A DNA stretch of 64,000 nt from Adineta vaga. Taxonomy: Eukaryota; Animalia; Rotifera. The notes beneath the pieces were generated by a model. The model was not told where the DNA came from. It worked only from the letters and a program-made list of their open reading frames with translations, and did no database searches. A program made the position numbers and the translations under genes. How positions within the stretch are numbered: the first letter of the stretch is position 1; each line of letters opens with the position of its first letter. Location: contig CP075493.1 in the NCBI GenBank assembly GCA_021613535.1, positions 3,658,001-3,722,000 on the forward strand, in the 5' to 3' direction. Of the stretch, positions 6,632-22,552 are shown one piece after another.

Positions 6632-9600
6632 CTAATGACGATGAGCAAACCAATCTGTCTCTTCAGTGCTATCGATGGTTAAAATTTCGACAACTTTGTT
6701 CAAATCATTGTTATTTTCTGTCAATAAACGTTGATTTTTTTGACGATTAACAAAGCCCATTTCAATTAAAATTTTCATTGGATCATTTGTTAAAATCGAT
6801 GTTTCTTCTTCATCTACATGCTCAAAATGATCATCATTGATAGCTACATTAACTGTTTCAATAACTGGTTCTTGTTGTTGTTGTTGAACAGGTGCCGAAG
6901 GTATCTATAAGAAGTATTAACTGTTATTCAATCTATAAGAAAGTAGAAGATCAAACCTCATCGTTTGCTTGTAATGTATTGAAAATGGCTTTTGCTGTTG
7001 AACCTGCTTGTTTAGCAACACTAAAGATATTCGTTACGACTGAATCAACAAAATCCAATGATTGACTAAAATATAGGTATGAAAGTTTACATGCTTGAAG
7101 ACGTGTTTAGTACACTTACTTAGCCCGTAAGGATTGTTGTTGACGTTCTTCGTTATTATTTCGAAGAGCAGGTCTTAATGCAATTAATGGCATTTCATTG
7201 GGCATTTCTAATGTAAGTGGTACTGCTGTAGTGGTAAATGTTGATATGCTATCATTATCACTATCGTTTGTATTTCGTGATGTGTTAATTAGTGATTCAG
7301 TTTGAGTATCGGTAGAACTGAAGCGACTTAAACTGAAACTTGACTAAAATAGATGCAAGTTATTAGTAAGGCTAGTGACAGATTGAATATACTTACACGA
7401 ACAGAACTACTGTCTGCTGATGAATTGTATGGTTTTGAAAGATCAAAGCAAGATGGTAATGGTACATCAACAAATTCGAATGTTTCTTTGACTTCCATGA
7501 TTGGTTCTAAAAAAAAGAGTAAAGAACATGTACAAAATGTTTCTTCAAAGTGTTTTTTATAGAAAGAGAAAACAAACAAAATGAAGAAAACATATTTCAG
7601 AAGAAATACGGATGCACTACGTGTTTGTAAGTTTTTCTTATTATTAATACTTACGAGATACTGTGGTTGTTGTTGCTGTTTTGGAACCAACTTGAATGGA
7701 ACACCAAATCATTGGGCCAAATGTTCGTTGACGAAAGGAAAGGATCCATTTACTTTCATAAGTACCAGCGTCACTAGCACACATATAATCTACTGTAATC
7801 AATGCTCGATCATGTGGTGCCGTGACAGGAATAACTGGTTGACGAACGATTTTGATACCATCAGCAAGATTGATCAATTCAATATCATCACTGCTCCATG
7901 GCAGAGAACCATCGTTAAGAAGAATCCAACCTTTGCGAAATACTTGTCCAGCTTCCATAGGTGTACCATCTGGTGTATTTTCATCAGCAATGAATCGAGC
8001 TGAATATGGACTGAAAAAGAAAAATCATTTTTTAGACGATTTATTCAAATTTTCTATAAAACTTCACGACTTGTAAATGTTTACGAACGATGTAAAAGAT
8101 AAAGAGACTATAAAATATGAACCTACCGAAGTAATTTAAGTTTCTCTTCGATTTTTAAAACGTCTCGTAAGTTTCCATGGCATGTTGCTATTTGAAGATC
8201 ATTATAAAGAGCAGCAATTTTGACTTTCATTGGTGCAAAAAAACGAAGAACATCTGCTGGATCCGATCTGTAAGAAAGAAAAAAAATTGAATACATATTT
8301 ATAACGATTTATTTATTATACCGATCGTAAGTTTTAATTGTTGTTTGATTTGATGATCGTTTACTCTCTTTCTTAGCATTGTGACGTTGCTGTTCTCGTC
8401 GATGTTTTCGTTTAAGTGAACGTTTTTCTGATGATGATAATAAATCCTTTAGAAAGCAAAAAAGACAATTTGTTGTTGTATAATATTCCTATTTCCTCTA
8501 TTGTTCTTACGTCAGTTGTACACTCCGTAATATGATTTCGTGAAAATAAAGGTAGAAGTACTTGTTCATCTGTACGTTGTTTCTTAATATTCTAAAATAC
8601 AATCGATTATATTCAATATTAGAGATGAGAAGAGCTTAGAATATACTTGTGGTTCCGTATCACCATTGGCCACTGTTAATGTTCGAACATTTGCAGCAAG
8701 TTGTTCATAACAATCTTGACTTTTTGATTTTTTACTGATCGTCATCTTTTTCAATGGCACAATCAACTAGAAACGAGAAAGGAAAGAGTCATTCTGATTT
8801 TTTTTGTACATCATTTTTGAACATACAGGAGCAACTGGTTGTGGTAATGATGGACTATTATCAGCTTTCGGTGCTATTGGTATTTCAAGTATTTCATTAA
8901 CTTCATCATTCATTTCATAATTGAAACAAACTTCAATTAATGTTTCGTTGAGTTCATTCAACTAGAGAAACAAATAATGATAGATCAATGAAGTATATAC
9001 AAAAACGAAATCATTTACATCTTCATTTGAACCATCACTTGTTTTCTTTGTTTGAAGAAGATATTGAATTGCTTGTCGAATAGATGCAGTAAATAATAAT
9101 CGAAAATGATGTGCTTCAATACATTGATGACATTTGGAAAAAAGTTTAAGTAAAGAATTGTATTCCTACAATAGAATGTTTAATAAATAAATTATAAGAA
9201 GAAGAGAACAAACAAACGAACCATTGTTGTTGTTTTTGTTGAATTCGAACTTTTCATTTGTTCGAATTGATTTTGAAGATTTTTCAAACCATTTTGTACA
9301 ATAAACTAAATGAAGATTTCGTTTTAAAAAAAAACATTTTCATTCGTATGGATTAACATACACGTTGAATAAGTGATCGAATCCAACCATAGGATTCCAT
9401 TGAATTCGAATAATTTGTTCGTAAAAATTCGTCATCATCTAATTGATTGACACGATCTTCTGGTAACAGTTTATCTTTATGTTTTTGAGAGAATGTTGTA
9501 TTAGTATCGAATGCCTAAAAATGAGAGATAGATTTTATTCAAATTAGAATCCTGAAAAAATCATATAACTTACGATTGCGAGTGTATTTAATAAGGTAAT

Positions 9601-10467: not shown

Positions 10468-11497
10468 ATTAGATGGCAAATGTGTCGTTTATTCTGCGTC
10501 GAAAGAAATTAAAAAAAATAAAAATCTAAAGATATTTGTATATATATATACATGAAAAGTGCATAAAGGTGCGTCGAGAATATTACTAATATTCAAACTA
10601 AACACGCGCTCGTAAGATATAGTTAACGTTGTGCAAGACACAGATAGACTAGACTCCTTCGAGAAGAAAGAAAGAAAAGAAAAGAACGCATATGACGAAG
10701 TTGTAGAATAGAGAAATGAGAGGGAGAGAGAAAAAAACAGTGAGTAAATATATCGACGGTTATTATGTTGTGTTCTTGAATCATATGGTAGCTTAGTTTA
10801 AAATGGAGAAAGAAAGAAATAAAAGGGAATTAACAATAGTGAGGGTAGACATGTACGTCGAGAATATAAATGAAAATGTTTCTTGCTCGAAAAAAAACAA
10901 GCTGATCTAGTTCTGGTGATCGAAAGGGAAATAGATTGAAAAAACTCGGATGAAACGTTTACAGTTCTCTTAATATACTCATTTTTCTTTTACGATTGAA
11001 GAAAAGTTTCTCGATTTGATTTGGAAGTTGGATAACGAATACATAGCAACATAAACTTTGCGTTGCAGTAAACTTTCTCTGTCGCAAACAACACCTAAAT
11101 CTCCTTTAATCTATTATCGTGTTCAAACTAATCTACAATTCCTGAAACTGCATTCACAAATATCTTCGTTGCACTTTCTCTCTCTCTCGGAAATAACATT
11201 GTAATCAAGCTCATAAATGCCTGAGAAACATATATCGAATGCGATAAGTTTCAGACACAAGAGAAACTTTCATTTAGAATCATAATATTGCCAAATTCTA
11301 TTCATTGATCTCTCATCTAAAAAGAAAAAGAAAGCTTTTCAATAGATACTGTTTTTCTTTAGTTGATGTTTTTATTTTTCTTTATTCTTATTCTCCTCAA
11401 GAGATATGAATAATGACGATATACAGCAAAACAAAACAAGAAAGAAAATAACAATATGTTCGTTGCCGTTATCGTATTTTATATAATATCTTGTGTT

Positions 11498-12147
<650 letters not shown>

Positions 12148-13079
12148 TGTTGATCAAAAATGATGGATAACAACAGTGAAATAGATCTAAAAGAAAGAAA
12201 ATATTATAGAAGCAGATATAGGAAACTCTTCGCTATGATTAGAGTCATCTAGCTAAGAAGATAATCGATTTCGATGTGGTTGTTCGACCTCACCAATACT
12301 CGCCATAAAAATTCCAAACGAGTCTCCGTTTGTCAATTAAGAAATAAAAGAAAAATTAAGCTTCTTTATCAATGAAAAATTCTTCTAAACTTTTTTAATC
12401 ATGTATCAAAAGTTTTAATGAGGAAATACATTTGCATTATATTCGATAGATGTCACTGTCAAACACTCAACATAGTGAAAGGTAACTCAGTAGTATATAG
12501 TGATACAAATGAATCACATACATATTTTACTTCATTTGACTTAAGCTCAAGTAGTTGTAGGACAGTTTTAAAAAATCAGATAAGTAGTTTTATCAATCTC
12601 CAGGTCATAACAAATAAGTAACAGTTATTTTGCATTATTAGAAAAGAATATATATCCATTATTTGAATACATATAGATACCCTTTGGTTTGCTAAAATTT
12701 GTCATGTAAATCTACTCGACAGTTCTAATAATTTCTTTCACATATTTATTCCTTTCTAGACAAAGGAAAAAAACAACGTTCTTGCTATACTCGATAGCAT
12801 CTAGTTGATTAATAAATATTTGTTTATATATATATATATATATTTCACATGACTTTAACAGAAAAGCGAGTTAGATAAGATATCACTATACACCAAGTGA
12901 TAAAAAGAAAAACTGCTATACTCTCTTCCTTTTCTTGTAACATCTAATCTGATTGTGAAATAATGAGTTGACAGTGAGATTTATTCAATGAATATCAATT
13001 ATTTAAAAAAAGACTTTTCCTCTGCTTGATTCAATCAAACAAAAAAATCTTAATGTATAAATGCGACATGTTTTATATA

Positions 13080-13677: not shown

Positions 13678-13961
13678 GATAAAATTTTAGACACAAATGA
13701 CAGTCTACTGATACTTATATTTATGTCGAAACAAAAAAGATAACTAGATGATATTCGAGTTTCACGCGACTACGAAATGTGATGTGATAAGCAGTTTTCG
13801 AATGTTGTTGAGATGAAGACCAGAGATTGTCAAAAAGAAATGAAGTTTCATAGGTCTCACTATGAATCATCATATGTTATTTCAGCTGCAAAACATTTGT
13901 TGAACGAAAGTCACGCCTAACTTTCCTTCTTGACAACTTGATTTTAGGGTGAGTATGGGTG

Positions 13962-14116
13962 CCCAGGATGGACGTTCCGGCCTCCGGATCTAGTAGGAAA
14001 GACGCGGGAAAATCACTGAAACCAACTGGAAAAATTCCTGGGCAGAATACTGCTCCTATGAAATTATCGGAATTGTACGGAACCCGCCGGTTCCAGGACG
14101 TACGAGTCGACCTGGG
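13962..14116. mobile_element. Short non-autonomous DNA transposon (MITE-like) remnant with CCCAGG...CCTGGG termini
   Basis: 155-bp GC-rich island in AT-rich DNA. The left end CCCAGGATGGAC resembles the reverse complement of the right end, CCCAGGTCGAC. There are internal CCGG/GGAA-rich motifs and no clear TSD. Confidence 0.6.
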
Positions 14117-14612
14117 TCTGTATGCAGGGTGAACACTAGCCAATCATCTACATCCACACCAAGACCATCAAAATGTAGAAATTTAGAAGTTGAAGAAGTT
14201 TAATACTCGAATCGAATTCACGATTTCTACACTACTCTCTATGCATATATTGGCAACAATCATCTCGATGATTACCCTTCGCGTTTGACATACACACATC
14301 GATGCATGCAAAATCCAACCTCCGCATTTGCTTTTATTATTGCATATTTGCAGTATTGAAAAAGAACTGCATATACATTCGATCAACATTAGTAGAGATT
14401 TTTCTTCGTTTTGCGTTCTTTGATTTCTTTTTTTTTGATATTTAACGAACACAGCAAGAGAGCGACAGAGGAAAAAATATTGGACTGAAAAAACCTTCTA
14501 TAGCCAAATAATTATCGAACATATAAATATCAACGAATCAGTGGTACCTTTAAAGAATAATACATTACAGAATAGAATTTCGATAATGATAGGTAGACAA
14601 GAACTAATCAAT

Positions 14613-15673
14613 ATGAAAACTTGTTTTATGTTGTTACTGTTAATAACGTTAGTAACAAGTTTCGATTATCGATTTAAACAACGTTCATCAAGACTTCAAC
14701 AACTGAAAGGTTAGTAAAGAGACGTTTTATGCAATTAATTAAAGAAAACTTATGTTTAGATTTGTTGAATGACGATGATAATGAACGAGAATTTGATTTG
14801 AGACATCGAAATCGTAAGTTAACTGATGATTAATGATACTGATATGTAATCGAAGATTTTTTAAGAGTATAGTTTTGACACGATATTTCGTATTCAGATG
14901 TATATTAAATGTAAATAGAATTTACAATCATTTGATATGATTATCAACCAATAAATATGATCGCATAAATAATAATAATAAAAAACAGTGTACGTGTTTC
15001 AAATATAGAATTAATGAATTGATGTTTTTCTTCGGAAATGTTAAAAAAATATCTTATTATATTATTTAGAACAAAATGAAAATGATGAAGAAAGTGATGA
15101 AACTGATTTCGGTACGTACATAAACTTGCTTACCATATGCTTGCTAAAGAAAACTTCAGCTTATATCAATGTAGGCATACACACAAAAAAAAAAGAGATA
15201 GAACATTAACTAACTTCGGTTTACAACGATACTTATGATATGTTTTCGGTTTAGATCGTCGAATTTCTGATAATGATGATGGTGAACAATATATGGAAAT
15301 TCGTGCAACTGTTGGATCCAACGAAACAAATACAGGTAAATAATTCATTTTCTTATGATTGATTTCAATATGTCATGACTCGTTAGGATCAGAGATCACA
15401 CTTCAAAATCGTGCTGCTATGAATACTCGTCTTCGTGTTCTTTATACAGATAAAGACGGTCGTCCAGCAATTGCTGAAACTGGTCGATTATGGACTGGCC
15501 AAACAAAATCTGTCCAACTTCTTGTTGGTGCAACAAATATAAATGTCATCGTTGAGAAAGATTTATTTTTTGAAACATGGCGTGAAGCCTACAAAGGTAC
15601 ATTAACTAATAGCAATCAATGTATACGTATTGTGGGTGTAACACTCTTTTCAAAAATTCATCCATGCAAATAA
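14613..15673 (+). CDS. Secreted prepro-protein with acidic propeptide and C-terminal cholesterol-dependent-cytolysin domain-4-like module (186 aa, 5 exons)
   Basis: Exons 14613-14709, 14760-14813, 15070-15111, 15255-15335 and 15387-15673 are all joined by phase-1 GT-AG introns and are in frame (561 nt). They encode a signal peptide MKTCFMLLLLITLVTS, a D/E-rich pro-region and a mature domain ending IRIVGVTLFSKIHPCK. Confidence 0.75.
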
Positions 15674-15898
15674 ACGATTAAATACAAGAAGAAAACAAGA
15701 CATAACGAAAGAAAGCTGATTATTAATAACATAAGATTTCTCTCTCTTTATATATATATATAAATAGATTTCTTCTGGCTTGGTTGAATAACAAATAAAA
15801 TTGTTAAAAGAAAATATTCAATTACAAATATATATATATATATCTTTACAAAATAAAACAGATAAAAATCAAAAGAGATGTGGCTGAGAGATTTGATT

Positions 15899-18511
15899 TT
15901 ATAAAGCATTCTGATTCTGAGACAGCGAAGCATTCTGAATTGCTGTATGCTAAAATAAAGGATTGGAATCAAAGTAATGAAATTAGGAACAAAAGAATAG
16001 ATAGTACCCAAATATCTAAAATATCAGTCACAGTATGTTGAGTCGGTAATTTAAATAAAAAGTAAACAAAATTTCGAGAGATCGTTTCGAAGAATATATT
16101 TCCATCTATAAAATTACAAATAGGATAAATCATTTGATTTGAAATCCTTTGTTTTCATTACCTGAATTTTCTAATTTAATCGACGTTGTATTTGTTGTTG
16201 ATGATATTAAGGATAGAACTTCAGGTGATTCATTAGGATATTGTATCGTTAATTTTAATTTTAAAGGTGGTACGATAGGCATATTAATTTCAATAAGTCG
16301 ACATACTAATTCATAATCATTCCCTACTAAATCTTTATTTCTCAAAATTGATGGTGTTGGAGAAATTTTATCATGCATAGGTTTTAATTCATATGTGAAT
16401 GTATTCATTGATAAATGAGCAAATTCACTTTCAATAATACGACTTAACGATGTTGAAACATGAAAGTTCGTAGATATAGAATTTTGTTCAATAACTTGTC
16501 TAGATTCTGTATCCAGACGAATATGTCTAAAAATATGAAAAATATAGAAGGAACAAAAATGATAATTCAATCTTAAATCTCTCTTTTTCATTTAGTTTAA
16601 TTTCCTTTTTTTTGTGCATACTTATGTGGTACACCATTTAAAACTTCACTTAATGGTTCGAGAAATCGCTTAGCGATATTGTATTTTAATGTTGAATCTT
16701 TATTTAAATAATCAACAATTGTACGTTGACATTGTTCGAAAACACCATTTGTCATCAAACGAGAATTGTTTATATTTGATGACATAGCTGTTGAGACATC
16801 GCTCATAGAAGGCACCATGGTTGGTCCTAACATTCGATCGACATGTTCTTTGAGACGACGTGCAGCAATTAAATGTTCAGGAACTAAATTTCTCACGAAA
16901 TTAGAAATTTGCTCGTGTAATTGACGATATTTAACTATTTTATCGTGTTGACCTAAGAAGATAGCTGAAAGGTACAAAAGGAAGTTATTTACTTTTAATC
17001 TATACCTTCTTGTTGAAATCGAGCAATAATTCGAGTCAAATATTGAATACGTTCATTGAAAAATTTATAAAGAAAGTGCATTTCATCATCAATAATCACT
17101 GCAGGACTACCCGTATAATCTGAGTATATATGTATATATTCGCATTTGATATATATGAACATAGTTACATTATATCTTACTTATCATATTCATTGGAGAC
17201 ATTTGTGGACGATAAATACTATTTTGTGGAGATTGAGACATCATATAACGTGCCAATGGACTTTGTCCAGATTGTACGATCGATGCTGGTGGTGGTGGTG
17301 GTGGCGGTGGTTGGATCATTCCAGGATGAGAATGCGGAGATGAGATACCACTCGAAGTCATCATCGAATCCGAATTTCTATAGAATGGAAATTATTAAAG
17401 TTAAGAAAAAAGATAGGAGCGTACGGTGCCATTGGACTTGGTTGCTGCTGTGCAATTTGAGAATTTGATATTGGTTGATTACGAACATTTCGATTTATCT
17501 TGAAATATTTTATTTATTTCAATACGTTGTCTCAAATTAATACTTACATTACGAAGTCTTGTTTGTACTACATTTTGTGCAGTATTTTGTGGTTGTTTGG
17601 GTGGATTTGGACTGGAGAGAAGATGTTGAAGAACTGAATAAGATTATATTTAGAGAATTCAAAATAGAATGGCTAAACATTTACTTTCATCTTGAACACC
17701 AGATGACGTCGATGATGATTGCAATAACACTGATGGGTTTGTTGGTTGCTGCAGTTGAGAAGTATTTGGCGAATCTTGTTGTTGTTGTTGATTGAGATTA
17801 CTTTGTTGACGTACTTGTTGAAGTTGCTAGATAATAAAATTACTATTAATTAACTCGCATGAATCTACTTATTATTTCTCAAAAATGTTTTGATCGGTAT
17901 TTCACGACAGAGAAAGTATTGTTCTTTATTGTAGAGAATATTAGATGATAGATATCTTTTATATAAAAATATCTCTGGTGTAAATCGAACCTAACCTGAA
18001 CAAGTGTACGTTGTGGTGGCGGCACTGATATTTGCTGTGGAGGCGGTGGAGCTGATATTGGTTGTTGTTGTTGTTGTTGTTGCTGCAGATATTGAGATGT
18101 TGCAGTTGTCATGGGTTGTTGGTTGCTGCGGTCGCATTTGTAGGACTTGCATTCCAGTCTGTTGTTGTTGTTGTTGTTGTTGCAGCAGCTGCTGCTGCTG
18201 CTGCATGGAAGGTGTAATTAATTCCTGTTTGATTTGTGGTTGTTGCTGTTGCTGTTGTTGTTGTATAGCAAAGTTTTGCATTGTTGATCTCGAATGAATA
18301 TTTGATAATTGAGATTGTGCTTCTTGTTTGATATTCATTATTGATGTTGGTGGAACCATTGCTGTTGATGATTGCATTGTATATGAAGATTGATTTGTTA
18401 AAGGTACTTGTGATTGTAATTGTTGAGATATTGCAGACATTTGTGGTTGTTGAGATTGCATATACACCTGTTGTTGCCCTTGTGGATTCATCATGGTCTG
18501 TTGTAGCTGTA

Positions 18512-18547
<36 letters not shown>

Positions 18548-18892
18548 GCTGCTGTTGCTGTTGCATTTGTTGACTTCTCTGTTGTATCAAGGCTTGAATT
18601 ACGCGACGATAGAGTGCCTAAAATAGATCACTTATAATCTGTAATCAGTACAGTAAAAATAATCAATTTACTGATTTGCCAACACTTCGGTTGAACGCAA
18701 TATCATCAAAGCGCATTGCTAATTCTCGATTTCCACCATAATGGTTTGTTCTAAACAGAAGAAAAATCAATTAGTATTCAAAACATATTTTATTTTAATA
18801 TTTATTTACAATCGTGTAATATAATTTTCACGTTCACTTTCGCTGATCTTTTGTTGATCATCTGATGATCCTGAACCATCAGCGTTCATCAT
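15899..18892 (-). CDS. MED15: Mediator subunit 15 (ARC105)-like, poly-Q, multi-exon
   Basis: Short helical N-terminus and long Q/P-rich middle. The C-terminal region LVCRLIEINMPIVPPLKLKLTIQYPNESP...HTVTDILDIW matches the MED15 C-terminal pattern (LPSVPPLELSVPADYPAQSP...HSVTALLNTW). Confidence 0.8.
18055..18566. repeat. Coding (CAA/CAG)n poly-glutamine tracts within MED15
   Basis: Several (TTG/CTG)n runs on the + strand at about 18061-18085, 18161-18203, 18240-18262 and 18513-18563. Confidence 0.9.
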
Positions 18893-19069
18893 CTTTATCT
18901 GAAAGATACAATATTCAAGTGAATTTCGATTTATTTGTATGAGCATTGACACACCGGTGTAAGGTGTATAAAGAAAAGAACAACAAACAGTAGCACCACC
19001 AACAACTAAGAAACAAAACAGAGGCGAAAAAAGCATAGGAATGATCTGAATTGAACAAAAAATAAGCAT

Positions 19070-21719
19070 CTATGATTGTGTAGAATTGTCTAGACGTTTC
19101 TTCCAAAACCATTTTTGATATTGATTCGAAGATTCGCAAGGTGCCATATAAACATCTTTATCATTTGTTGCAGATATTTCAATACAAAAACCCGATGCAT
19201 GTCGAAGTAAATCATTCTACAAAGAGAAATCTCATTATATTTTCCTTATTCTACAAATAAATGTACTTCATATTTCCACATTTGATTTCCTTGCATTGAA
19301 TGACAAGTAAATGATGTAATTTTACTTGGTTTTCGTAATTCAGCATGTCCACCGGCATAATCTAAACATTTATCTTCTCGACGAATTTCAAATGTTTTTG
19401 ATAATAGAAAATATTGATTGCCACCTTGACCGTGACATGGATAACCAATAACAGCTTTATCACTATCTTCAATCTCTTGAGAATCAATACATACATTCGG
19501 TTTCGCACGACTACGAATCTTTGAAGAACAAAAACAAGAATGAGTTAGATATATTTGAGAGAAAAGAAAAGATTGAAATATACTTCGCCAAAAAATAAAC
19601 TTTCGCCAGGTACAAACTGTTCAGGATAAATATTCTCTAAGAACCATTTGAATGATTTACATTGTAATCGTTCACGAATTTTCAATCGATCAGATACATC
19701 ACCATAATCACCCTAAAAAAGAAAAGTAATTTCTGTTGTCAATCATAATAAACCAAAATTTCTCATAGAAAATACATTGGTATGAATAGGAACTAACGAG
19801 AAAGACTATTTTGTACGTACGAAACTAATCACTATATAAATAGACATACGTAAAACCATCCAATGATTCATTAGTATCATTACTACTACAATAGATATTC
19901 TCTCTTCAAACATTTATTTAATTGAGACTGTCATATTTGTGATACAAACATCAAACAATTATCTCATATGTTATTGACAAATATTCAACGTGAAACTATT
20001 CTAATTAGATAAGAATGTATAATACTTACAAGATTATTAGAAATTCTTTCGTAATAATATTTCTATAGACGAAAAGAAAGAAAGAATATTGAAAATATCT
20101 TAATTTGGTTTACTTTATAATCATCAAGCCAAACTTCAGCAAGACGAACTGTATTCTTTTTCACAACATTGACATTACTTGGCCATTGATAAGGAGAACG
20201 TTTTCGAAAAATATGACCAACATGTGAACATGGTGCACATAAAAGTTCTCCACCACATTGCCAAACCTACATGCAATAAGATTTACGTTTGTTATTGGAA
20301 ACAAGTGAACATATTTTGATTGATTTACTTTAAAAGAAAGCTCAAGATTTTCACCACCCCAAATATCCATTCCAGGATCATACATGCCAAGTTGATCGAA
20401 CCAGTCTCGATCGATAGCAAATAAGCCACCTGCCATTGTTGGACTCCTAAGATCAATAGAAACAATTCGTCTAGAATTATCATTTATTTTCTGAATTTTA
20501 CCGAATGGGATCGGTTTTTTTCTGTCTTCGTTTCATTTCGCGTTCAGGCGTAACGTGCCAATTAAAAATAAGATTCCAATCAAAACCACCCACTTGAATA
20601 TTTTGTATTGGCGTACCGGTTATTTGAAATGTTGAATCATCAATAATTTCAATCAATGGAACGACAGCTACTTTAGGATTTCGTGCAATTGGATCTAATA
20701 AAGGTTCAAGCCATCCTACAAACAAAGATCAAGACGTGAAAATAACTTAAACGAAGATATATTTACCTTCAGCACATTCACAATGTGAATCCAAGAAGAC
20801 TAAAACTTTTCCTTTTGCAGCGACAGCACCTTTCAAACGAGCACGTATAAGACCTTCACGTTTATCCGTACGTAGTAATCGAACTTTTTTCAAGGGTTTA
20901 ATATCGTCTTCAAGCATTTTCTTCAAATGTTCTAATAAAAACGAAAACAAAAAAAAACATCCAATTAGATATTTCATGTTCATTTTACCCACGAACTTAC
21001 CAATATAACAGACCTTTATCAGAAAAATCATCGACCAATATGACTTCATTCAATAGACTAGGTGGTGAACGATCCAATACCGACCAAACAGTTCGTAACA
21101 AGGCTGAACGTGCTTCATTATGAAAGATAATAATCACAGATGTATCTGTTAGATTAGGATGTAAATCAACTTTTTTACATCTAGATAAAAATATTTTGTT
21201 TAAAATAAACATCAAATTTTTGAATAGATATAATTACTCAGGATCTCGTATATCAGGTAAATTTCTTCGTAGTGAAATCATATTACTAACATATTCATTA
21301 AATGCATTATTTTTCCAACCATCATCAAATTTTTTACGTTCCTCTGCCGATAATTTTTCTTTCTCGATGCGAACTGCATTTCCTAATTCACCTGGTCCAC
21401 CCTTTTTCGGATCATTGTGTTCTTTTTGCATTACAGGCGCAACAACTTGTACTTGACCCTGCATTTCTTGTGCTTGTTTTTTTGCTTTATCACGTTCTTC
21501 AGCTGGATGATCATTGTCAGGATGATGTTTAAATGGTAAAACACCGATGATGCGATCAACAAGAGAGGATGCCACAGTTTTATCAACAACATTAATTTGA
21601 ATATCATTTTTTGATTGAGATATTGAATCTGTACGAAAAGTGAATAATATAATAGCACCAAACCATAATGCCGGAATAAATAATATATATTTTAGATATC
21701 CTCGACGACGCATTGCCAT
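19070..21719 (-). CDS. GALNT: Polypeptide N-acetylgalactosaminyltransferase (GT27) with C-terminal ricin-type lectin domain
   Basis: Type II TM anchor; [30 protein letters not shown], DxH motif [29 protein letters not shown]; ricin repeats with CHGQGGNQ. Confidence 0.95.
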
Positions 21720-22552
21720 TACGAAAGATAAAAAATGTGTATCTTTTTTTTTAATAAAAACAAATAGGTTGCTGAAGCACCATCGCGCAAATAAGATTAA
21801 ATTTTCTTTAGTTAATAACACTCTGTTCTGTTCTCTTCCGTAAAGTTGACAATTCCATAGAATGTATTCTATGGATTTAAAATGCATAGATGCATCGATT
21901 GTAACATAGAGATTGCTGATGTATAGTAAGAACTAAGAAGAAAGAGAACAACACGCTGAAGTGAAGTGTTCCGTCTTTTCTAATTCACGAACATACATTT
22001 TTCGTATGCAAAGATGTCATTGCTTTGTACTTTTTCGAAACAAAACGCCACGTGTTTGTTGTCAATGGTTTAGATTTTGTTTGTACAGGGAATGTAAGTT
22101 CGTCATGTAACTATTTTCGACTGAATTCAGTGTTGAGAGAATCAGTAACTATAGATTAAAAATATCTTATAACTGCAGACATTAACATATATACGGTGAA
22201 TCTGAAAATAGCGATGAAACTATTCACTATATGAAAACATAACTTATGAATAGTGAATCTTCCATACTTGATAATCATGTACATCCATTTTTCTATGTTC
22301 TTGCTCGTTCGTATTGAAAGAAATCTTTACATTTCACAACATATTCTTTAATATGAATTAACACTGATTTACTCGATAATTAAAATGTTACATACAAAAA
22401 AGAACTGACATTGACTTTCATTTAAAAAAGAAGACGAACACAGAATTTGGTCATATATAGATATATACAACTATTCACAAATGCTAATTTGTTTTCTTTT
22501 GTCTTGAAATTCATCTCTTCAATATCTGACATAATACTCCTTGATGTTCATT

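Follow-up and report, generated by a model that had tools for sequence, protein, structure and literature searches.

The analysed window is a 64,000-nucleotide stretch of Adineta vaga contig CP075493.1, read on the forward strand. It holds one copy of a five-exon gene (14613-15673, + strand) encoding 186 amino acids in a frame that is open throughout, with the contig joints placed on GT..AG (Table 1). The introns measure 50, 256, 143 and 51 nt; all four have GT..AG borders and all four are in phase 1. This structure, proposed by a first-pass annotation made from the DNA letters, is borne out by spliced contigs: all four junctions are joined in one 625-nt contig of run X4 and again in runs X2 and X3, which come from another study, and the first junction is also joined in run X7 of a third study. 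Because they skip the introns exactly, these contigs indicate cDNA, the run type "RNA" itself being only a guess. Contigs of run X10, whose kind is not on record, read through the introns unspliced. In the listed contig cover, X6 and X8 reach the 3' end only and X1 gives nothing over the coding part, gaps that are uninformative.

Table 1. Features of the locus and its neighbours (window positions; aa, amino acids of the 186-aa product)
Feature	Position	Strand	Content	Support or remark
NBR1-like gene	7400-8300			neighbour
Ribosomal S17-family protein	11400-12150			neighbour
5' UTR region	14454..14612	+		contigs; some reach 14454-14467, one begins at 14554 after a non-genomic, adapter-like end
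Optional 5' UTR intron	about 14544-14592	+	49 nt, GT-AG	skipped in one contig
Exon 1	14613..14709	+	probable signal peptide (aa 1-16; 14613-14660), then the first part of the pro-region	spliced contigs
Exon 2	14760..14813	+	acidic pro-region, aa 33-50	contig joints
Exon 3	15070..15111	+	acidic pro-region, aa 51-64	contig joints
Exon 4	15255..15335	+	RR (aa 66-67), acidic run, conserved YMEIRA (15290-15307), linker	
Exon 5	15387..15673	+	94-aa D4-like beta-sandwich; stop 15671-15673	
L2-equivalent loop	15407-15427	+	exon 5	
L3 Leu-Trp	15488-15493	+	exon 5	
Shortened Trp loop	15554-15583	+	exon 5	
Cys170	15620-15622	+	exon 5	
Thr-Leu	15641-15646	+	exon 5	
Cys185	15665-15667	+	exon 5	
3' UTR	15674..15732	+		contig cover; beyond 15732 cover is cut by the repeat filter
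Med15-like gene	16005-18900	-		downstream of the gene
Family-2 glycosyltransferase	19070-21930			neighbour

The 94 residues of the last exon are identical to the C-terminus of A. vaga I4U23_001108. That NCBI model has another N-terminus, which matches frames upstream near 13.8-14.0 kb and replaces the signal-peptide start (13860-14612); the spliced contigs do not support it, and the gene is mis-modelled in NCBI. Proteins of A. ricciae, A. steineri and Rotaria have N-termini similar to our reading of exon 1. Exon 3 is absent in some ortholog models, for example P0004 and P0028.

The region is AT-rich (about 31% GC in the window). At 15521-15523 the window encodes Leu where Pro is near-invariant in the family, and contigs of X2 and X3 carry T15522C, which yields Pro. 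The optional 5' UTR intron overlaps an upstream in-frame ATG. A longer 5' contig has a loose end matching about 14361-14390, which suggests a further upstream exon; the region 14360-14612 is variable. Many contigs match a short stretch at 14174-14240 and then diverge; an imperfect 20-nt inverted repeat lies at 14174-14231, and the stretch is likely to be an interspersed repeat.

The product contains one folded domain, the 94 residues encoded by exon 5, and lacks the pore-forming domains 1-3 (PF01289) of cholesterol-dependent cytolysins (CDCs), as the first-pass annotation had maintained; the protein falls outside the pore-forming CDC family. The annotation had further assigned the domain to CDC domain 4 (D4) and had suggested comparing folds. 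With the AF2 model of the domain (pLDDT 87), all 27 Foldseek rows listed at E<=0.001 were CDCs (32 matches counted), and in an exhaustive VIA alignment against 48,161 chains three CDC D4 chains came out on top (Z 11.5, 11.3 and 11.0; rmsd 2.6-2.7; 94 residues aligned), the next unrelated fold reaching Z 8.1. Direct sequence evidence is marginal. PF17440, the D4 family named for the corresponding profile check, was the top Pfam match of the last exon, but its score (E=0.032, 14.8 bits) lies below the gathering cut-off of 23; among 51 aligned relatives, 11 reach E<=0.1, the best 8.6e-4. Rotifer-only profiles gave no significant match to CDC sequences (suilysin followed at E=0.13, below chance xylanase matches), and the significant CDC matches from another profile are partly circular, that profile having included two bacterial D4-like rows.

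Proteins that bridge this distance were nevertheless found. Among 1.84 billion representatives there were 15 matches, comprising 12 rotifer-type proteins, one tectonin protein (P0023), one Sarcina protein with four repeats and one autotransporter. P0023 contains PF17440 domains (E 2e-20) and matches the query at E 2.5e-7. By its predicted fold and through intermediates (P0023 and P0077), the last exon is a remote member of the D4 superfamily, the likeness going beyond chance at the fold level and by way of these bridging proteins. The autotransporter (P0024, E 4.5e-5) was judged a chance match, as were the sterol carrier protein 2-like entries, the only matches of a single-sequence search of PDB sequences (E about 0.05); their best stretch is not significant, and they are absent from the fold search list. 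Among viral structures nothing matched at E<=0.001, and viral contigs yielded no match either.

Compared with D4 of perfringolysin O (PFO), pneumolysin, listeriolysin O and suilysin, the rotifer domain has the same predicted fold along its full 94 residues and keeps both the Gly-x-Thr-Leu of loop L1 and the Glu...Trp-Arg frame of the Trp loop. It differs in standing without domains 1-3, in a hairpin ten residues shorter, in an extra Cys pair and in its sub-cut-off Pfam score. The Trp loop is two residues shorter than the 11-residue undecapeptide in all of the 47 distinct complete rotifer-type domains on which our residue counts rest (26 of 73 sequences, partial or identical, were dropped), and has one Trp and no Cys or Thr. 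The family adds hydrophobic residues in this loop. Its last Trp is present in 47/47, followed by Arg or His; the Arg equivalent to R468 is kept in 41/47, Arg and Lys being strongly conserved, and the net charge is positive in 46/47.

All motifs quoted in the first-pass annotation are present in the spliced product (RR at 66-67, MEIR at 78-81, the Trp loop at 148-157, Thr-Leu at 177-178, Cys at 170 and 185), but its emphasis on a retained Thr-Leu pair stands only in part. In the 16-member clade holding this gene the pair is kept in 15 and the L3 Trp in all 16. Across the 47 domains, Thr is found in 46 and a hydrophobic residue (L, F or V) after it in 46, but the pair is Thr-Leu in only 28, with Thr-Phe in 12 and Thr-Val in 5; moreover, the position of PFO V403 is Asn in 43/47 and the T460 equivalent is never Thr. 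The Thr-Leu pair is essential in PFO and a key sterol contact, to which L2 and the undecapeptide also contribute (available parts of PMC5744101). The pair is likewise described as essential in PMC11416283, where V403 and T460 are reported as intolerant of change in PFO selections and cholesterol binding is shown for other motifs too. Of the domesticated leafhopper CDCs, one in which Thr-Leu is mutated failed to bind cholesterol, and RdCDC3, for which no Thr-Leu mutation is reported, bound it (PMC13670155). Bdelloids carry sterol C24-methyltransferases (PMC10692144). Judged from the residues, the lost V403 and T460 equivalents and the short, single-Trp loop speak against a sterol-binding reading of the rotifer domain.

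Upstream of the domain, the protein is likely to be secreted, its signal peptide having been judged by hydrophobicity and conservation in place of a dedicated predictor. The pro-region (aa 17-81) contains 21 Asp or Glu and has a pI of 4.3; the domain is basic (pI 9.6), and the product predicted from a cut after RR has a net charge of zero. The exon 4 linker contains one N-glycosylation sequon at aa 87. The MEIR sequence had been put forward as a cleavage site, and in its favour the E-x-R pattern (here EIR) fits the quadruplet motif at which the acidic propeptides of toxins and antimicrobial peptides are processed (PMC6832493). On the other side, YMEIRA forms an extra beta-strand (pLDDT about 72-79) in the predicted model of the A. 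ricciae precursor, where it pairs with the sandwich. Instead of serving only for cleavage, the segment may thus cap the fold and be removable, or belong to it permanently. Its distance to the domain varies, and the motif is absent in P0013. Propeptides that block an edge strand are described as gating the activation of CDC-like toxins (PMC11169675, available parts). A likeness of YMEI to the CDC strand preceding D4 is likely to be chance, as it extends over 2-3 residues, has variable spacing and lies in a separate exon.

With the YMEIRA strand included, the confidence of the domain rises and the model becomes an Ig/C2-like sandwich, in which CDC D4 (Z 8.0-8.6) loses its lead over de novo Ig folds (up to 9.0) and C2 domains (up to 8.2). 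This model-based result weighs against the D4 reading. It would suit a product that keeps YMEIRA after the RR cut and serves as a stable Ig/C2-like extracellular structural or signalling protein, for example of egg coat, mucus or adhesive, with no membrane attack. The zero net charge after an RR cut, a fixed single locus under purifying selection (see below) and a third Cys in 19 of the 47 domains would agree with such a role. The fit of E-x-R to the processing motif, the varying spacing and occasional absence of YMEIRA, and the retained hydrophobic tip loops point the other way, and we regard this explanation as decidedly unlikely. Among the rotifer-type proteins P0014-P0076, the third Cys lies in the first hairpin and is found mostly in a faster-evolving clade; a covalent dimer or a link to a partner is possible. 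A homodimer prediction scored 0.19, which speaks neither for nor against a dimer.

The nearest relatives found outside rotifers are bacterial. Our genome sampling covered one bacterial phylum, plus plasmids. A rotifer-only profile matched in 1 of 401 genomes of this phylum, hitting a stand-alone ORF of 102 aa (E 2.1e-6 per genome) identical to WP_129052485.1. In hhalign, the rotifer domain aligns with this protein at a probability of 93.8 over 87 columns (about 23% identity), as against 15.6 over 31 columns for intact CDC D4. In the ESM Atlas, the rotifer domain and the 102-aa protein share their top two clusters (105 and 110 aa, 86-95% bacterial). Related genes of 110-134 aa occur on Clostridium novyi plasmids (including WP_012669514.1 and WP_004445051.1), Sarcina MGL5244109.1 belongs to the stand-alone or repeated D4-like modules, and a Leptolyngbya plasmid encodes a secreted-looking form of 126 aa. 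PF17440 matched 1 of 301 genomes of one order. With P0077 as the query, none of the other 137 genomes of its class held a relative and the 401-genome phylum sample gave a single weak match, and plasmid tblastn with the rotifer domain gave nothing significant. For the bacterial stand-alone modules we found no function in print.

On the C. novyi plasmid pCN1 (L017:323-3209), four of five adjacent genes encode D4-like proteins of 110-134 aa with Cys-rich ends; they are annotated as hypothetical and have no evident signal peptide, and only weak scores against the rotifer profile were obtained for two of them. That they are spore-surface proteins is a guess. An unannotated 111-aa Cys-rich ORF (L014:2037-2372), without a Pfam match, immediately precedes the bacterial stand-alone D4-like gene in the same orientation. 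Unrelated bacterial proteins can likewise carry an appended D4-like module (L011:2555-4675, L012:2486-4297, L021:2-1945, L022:1495-3177 and P0023), with B-lectin, ricin plus metallophosphoesterase, GDSL lipase and tectonin as partners; the atlas clusters add fusions to lipase_3 and M4 peptidase. D4 looks like a mobile targeting module.

For the origin of the rotifer gene, we compared the 47 rotifer domains with 10 stand-alone or repeated modules, 9 other short modules (8 appended and the Leptolyngbya form) and 4 CDC-type domains, the latter drawn from an intact CDC, an incomplete ORF of the CDC family and two proteins that have a long D4 without being CDCs. The short, Cys-stapled stand-alone modules are a working group and not a curated family. 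The hairpin spans 20 residues in all rotifer domains, 18-20 in stand-alone and 30 in all four CDC-type domains; the Trp loop spans 9, 8-9 and 11, respectively. The Cys pair is present in 47/47 rotifer, 10/10 stand-alone, 4/9 other short and 0/4 CDC-type domains. Profiles of the stand-alone, other short and CDC-type groups score the rotifer domains at medians of 41.7, 32.1 and 14.8 bits. In the reverse direction, the rotifer profile gives 20.8-32.0 bits for 6 of the 10 stand-alone domains and 7.4 for the intact CDC, shuffled bacterial domains reaching at most 11.2 bits. The bacterial modules differ from the rotifer protein in having no evident signal peptide or acidic pro-region in those examined, and Thr-Leu in 1 of 10.

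A phylogeny, which the first-pass annotation had called for, leans the same way: in an LG+G4 tree of 33 rows, rotifer and stand-alone domains are joined with support 96/89, although the AU test does not reject alternatives (p about 0.22) and a quick tree of 70 rows under a mixture model does not decide between the groupings. A single acquisition, with a bacterial family of stand-alone D4-like modules as the source, is made likely by these sequence comparisons, which stop short of naming a donor because the stand-alone set was partly gathered through rotifer-based searches and the sampling covers one phylum plus plasmids. Uptake of a truncated CDC toxin by rotifers would account for the Thr-Leu pair kept as in CDCs, and a single clade of rotifer and CDC-type D4 is not rejected by the AU test (p=0.218); against this, the hairpin, Trp loop, Cys pair, both sets of profile scores and the LG+G4 support side with the stand-alone modules, and we hold such an origin to be very unlikely. 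The annotation's notion of a bacterial-toxin module domesticated with introns therefore survives as regards the bacterial-type module and the introns, but the best matches are non-toxin stand-alone or repeated modules.

Under the favoured stand-alone origin, the missing pore domains, the shortened loop and the disulfide are all likely to be older than the transfer, since the short hairpin, short Trp loop and Cys pair already occur in the bacterial modules. In the strand layout of the model, Cys170 and Cys185 are symmetric about the Thr-Leu hairpin, and a disulfide between them is plausible. The earlier view that the pair suits secretion from an animal cell is not supported: being common to all 10 stand-alone domains, the pair was inherited.

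Given Thr-Leu in 28 of 47 rotifer but 1 of 10 stand-alone domains, the donor class may not bind sterol. An alternative with the same origin and processing has a ligand other than sterol, the cationic, hydrophobic-tipped domain binding anionic lipids, glycans or protein in a lectin- or opsonin-like manner. It would explain the lost V403 and T460 equivalents, the variation of Thr-Leu, the strongly conserved Arg and Lys and the adjacency of bacterial relatives to lectin domains (tectonin, B-lectin, ricin). It fits less well with the retention of Thr-Leu and the L3 Trp in the ortholog clade, and with P0023, whose three accessory modules all keep Thr-Leu and two of them a CDC-like Trp loop. We consider a non-sterol ligand unlikely.

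Within rotifers, the gene is not a recent arrival. The named eukaryotic matches are all from Adineta or Rotaria, absence from other animals being bounded by search sensitivity. The gene has non-metazoan relatives, introns and synteny with core genes, the marks of a horizontally acquired bdelloid gene. Seven of eight metagenome loci are true relatives (the eighth, L008, was judged chance, with 32 aa and then a stop); all seven are syntenic, with the same downstream Med15-like gene, and in each of them an AG acceptor directly precedes the domain, two pairs of loci being near-copies. L006 is collinear with the window over about 7.4-21.5 kb, and the order of neighbours is kept in L004-L006. Compared with six loci, the domain encoded in the window gives a dN/dS of 0.22-0.25, which shows purifying selection; comparisons with L007 give 0.34-0.60. 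This last locus, syntenic and of the Thr-Phe, three-Cys type, is likely, by inference, to be the second copy of the degenerate tetraploid genome. The gene is old and fixed among core animal genes, and is neither a contaminant nor a recent expansion.

The neighbourhood also bears on whether the protein could act with a partner. In aegerolysin/pleurotolysin systems, a small lipid-binding subunit recruits a separate pore subunit, and the rotifer protein could by analogy be the binding half of a two-component pore former, or else a competitive decoy against bacterial cytolysins. The gating of CDC-like toxins by edge-strand-blocking propeptides (PMC11169675) speaks for these proposals. According to that source, however, the CDC-like platform subunit recruits through a domain 1-3 core, which is absent here. 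No gene with such a core was found among the 7 neighbouring exons scanned, the scanned neighbours being ordinary (Med15, ribosomal protein, NBR1-like, glycosyltransferase), nor is one annotated or otherwise apparent next to the bacterial stand-alone genes within the short loci examined. Both proposals strike us as highly improbable.

Together, these observations point, if only tentatively, to a secreted pro-protein with a single D4-like domain that would bind sterol-containing membranes extracellularly without forming pores, a model-based reading that stops just short of being probable. The signal peptide would route the protein to secretion, the acidic pro-region would offset the cationic domain, and the last pro-region strand (YMEIRA) would cap the edge of the sheet; a convertase would cut after RR or after EIR. 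Cys170-Cys185 would staple the hairpin displaying the Thr-Leu-Phe loop, which, together with the Leu-Phe-Phe...Trp loop and the Leu-Trp of L3, would insert shallowly in the target membrane with the assistance of conserved Arg and Lys. For such a processed, cationic, non-lytic membrane binder, to whose sterol-directed nature we would give slightly less than an even chance, the likeliest role would be to coat or mark eukaryotic membranes that are foreign or have been ingested, such as those of fungal or oomycete parasites and of algal food, either in the gut or on the body surface. Effectors of an arms race do not usually stay at one fixed locus under purifying selection, which counts against this reading. 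In a fungal-infection study (PMC11258130), a term search of 12 of the 16 supplementary files returned no cytolysin entry.

A more elaborate variant of the proposal, which we think unlikely, is a protease-gated secreted sterol sensor, in which the pro-strand would act as a cap until cleavage and two diverged copies would read different sterols, one of the Thr-Leu/Trp type and the other of the Thr-Phe/Val type with the third Cys. If true, the animal would tell its own membranes from those of parasites or food by means of a pore-less cytolysin tip.

Domestication of the CDC superfamily in an animal is already in print: leafhoppers have gained full-length CDCs by horizontal transfer, of which some form pores and others are non-toxic (PMC13670155). 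The rotifer case resembles theirs in that a bacterial CDC-superfamily sequence was domesticated, the proteins are mostly secreted and paralogs diverge in the sterol motif. It differs in that the leafhopper proteins are full-length (490-680 aa) and nested among Gram-positive toxins, whereas the rotifer gene encodes the module alone, in another lineage; the word "rotifer" is absent from the main text of that paper. The precursor layout recalls spider toxin and antimicrobial precursors (PMC6832493), which share the order of signal, acidic propeptide and mature part, Arg at -1, Glu at -3 and a dibasic alternative; no homology is claimed, the rotifer motif is a predicted beta-strand and its cleavage is putative. 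In a search covering few subscription journals, we found no publication on a D4-only rotifer protein or on the bacterial stand-alone modules.

With this gene, the membrane-binding module of cytolysins gains a form that is encoded by an animal and has no pore. A wider bacterial family of D4-like modules, both stand-alone and appended, also comes to light, for which we found no description. Ordinary BLAST-based screens for horizontal transfer would likely miss the gene, because its direct matches to solved CDC sequences fall short of significance and its NCBI model is wrong. The natural Thr-Leu, Thr-Phe and Thr-Val variants lend themselves to testing the reach of the CDC sterol-recognition rule, and the small disulfide-stapled domain, if it binds sterol, could become a new lipid probe.
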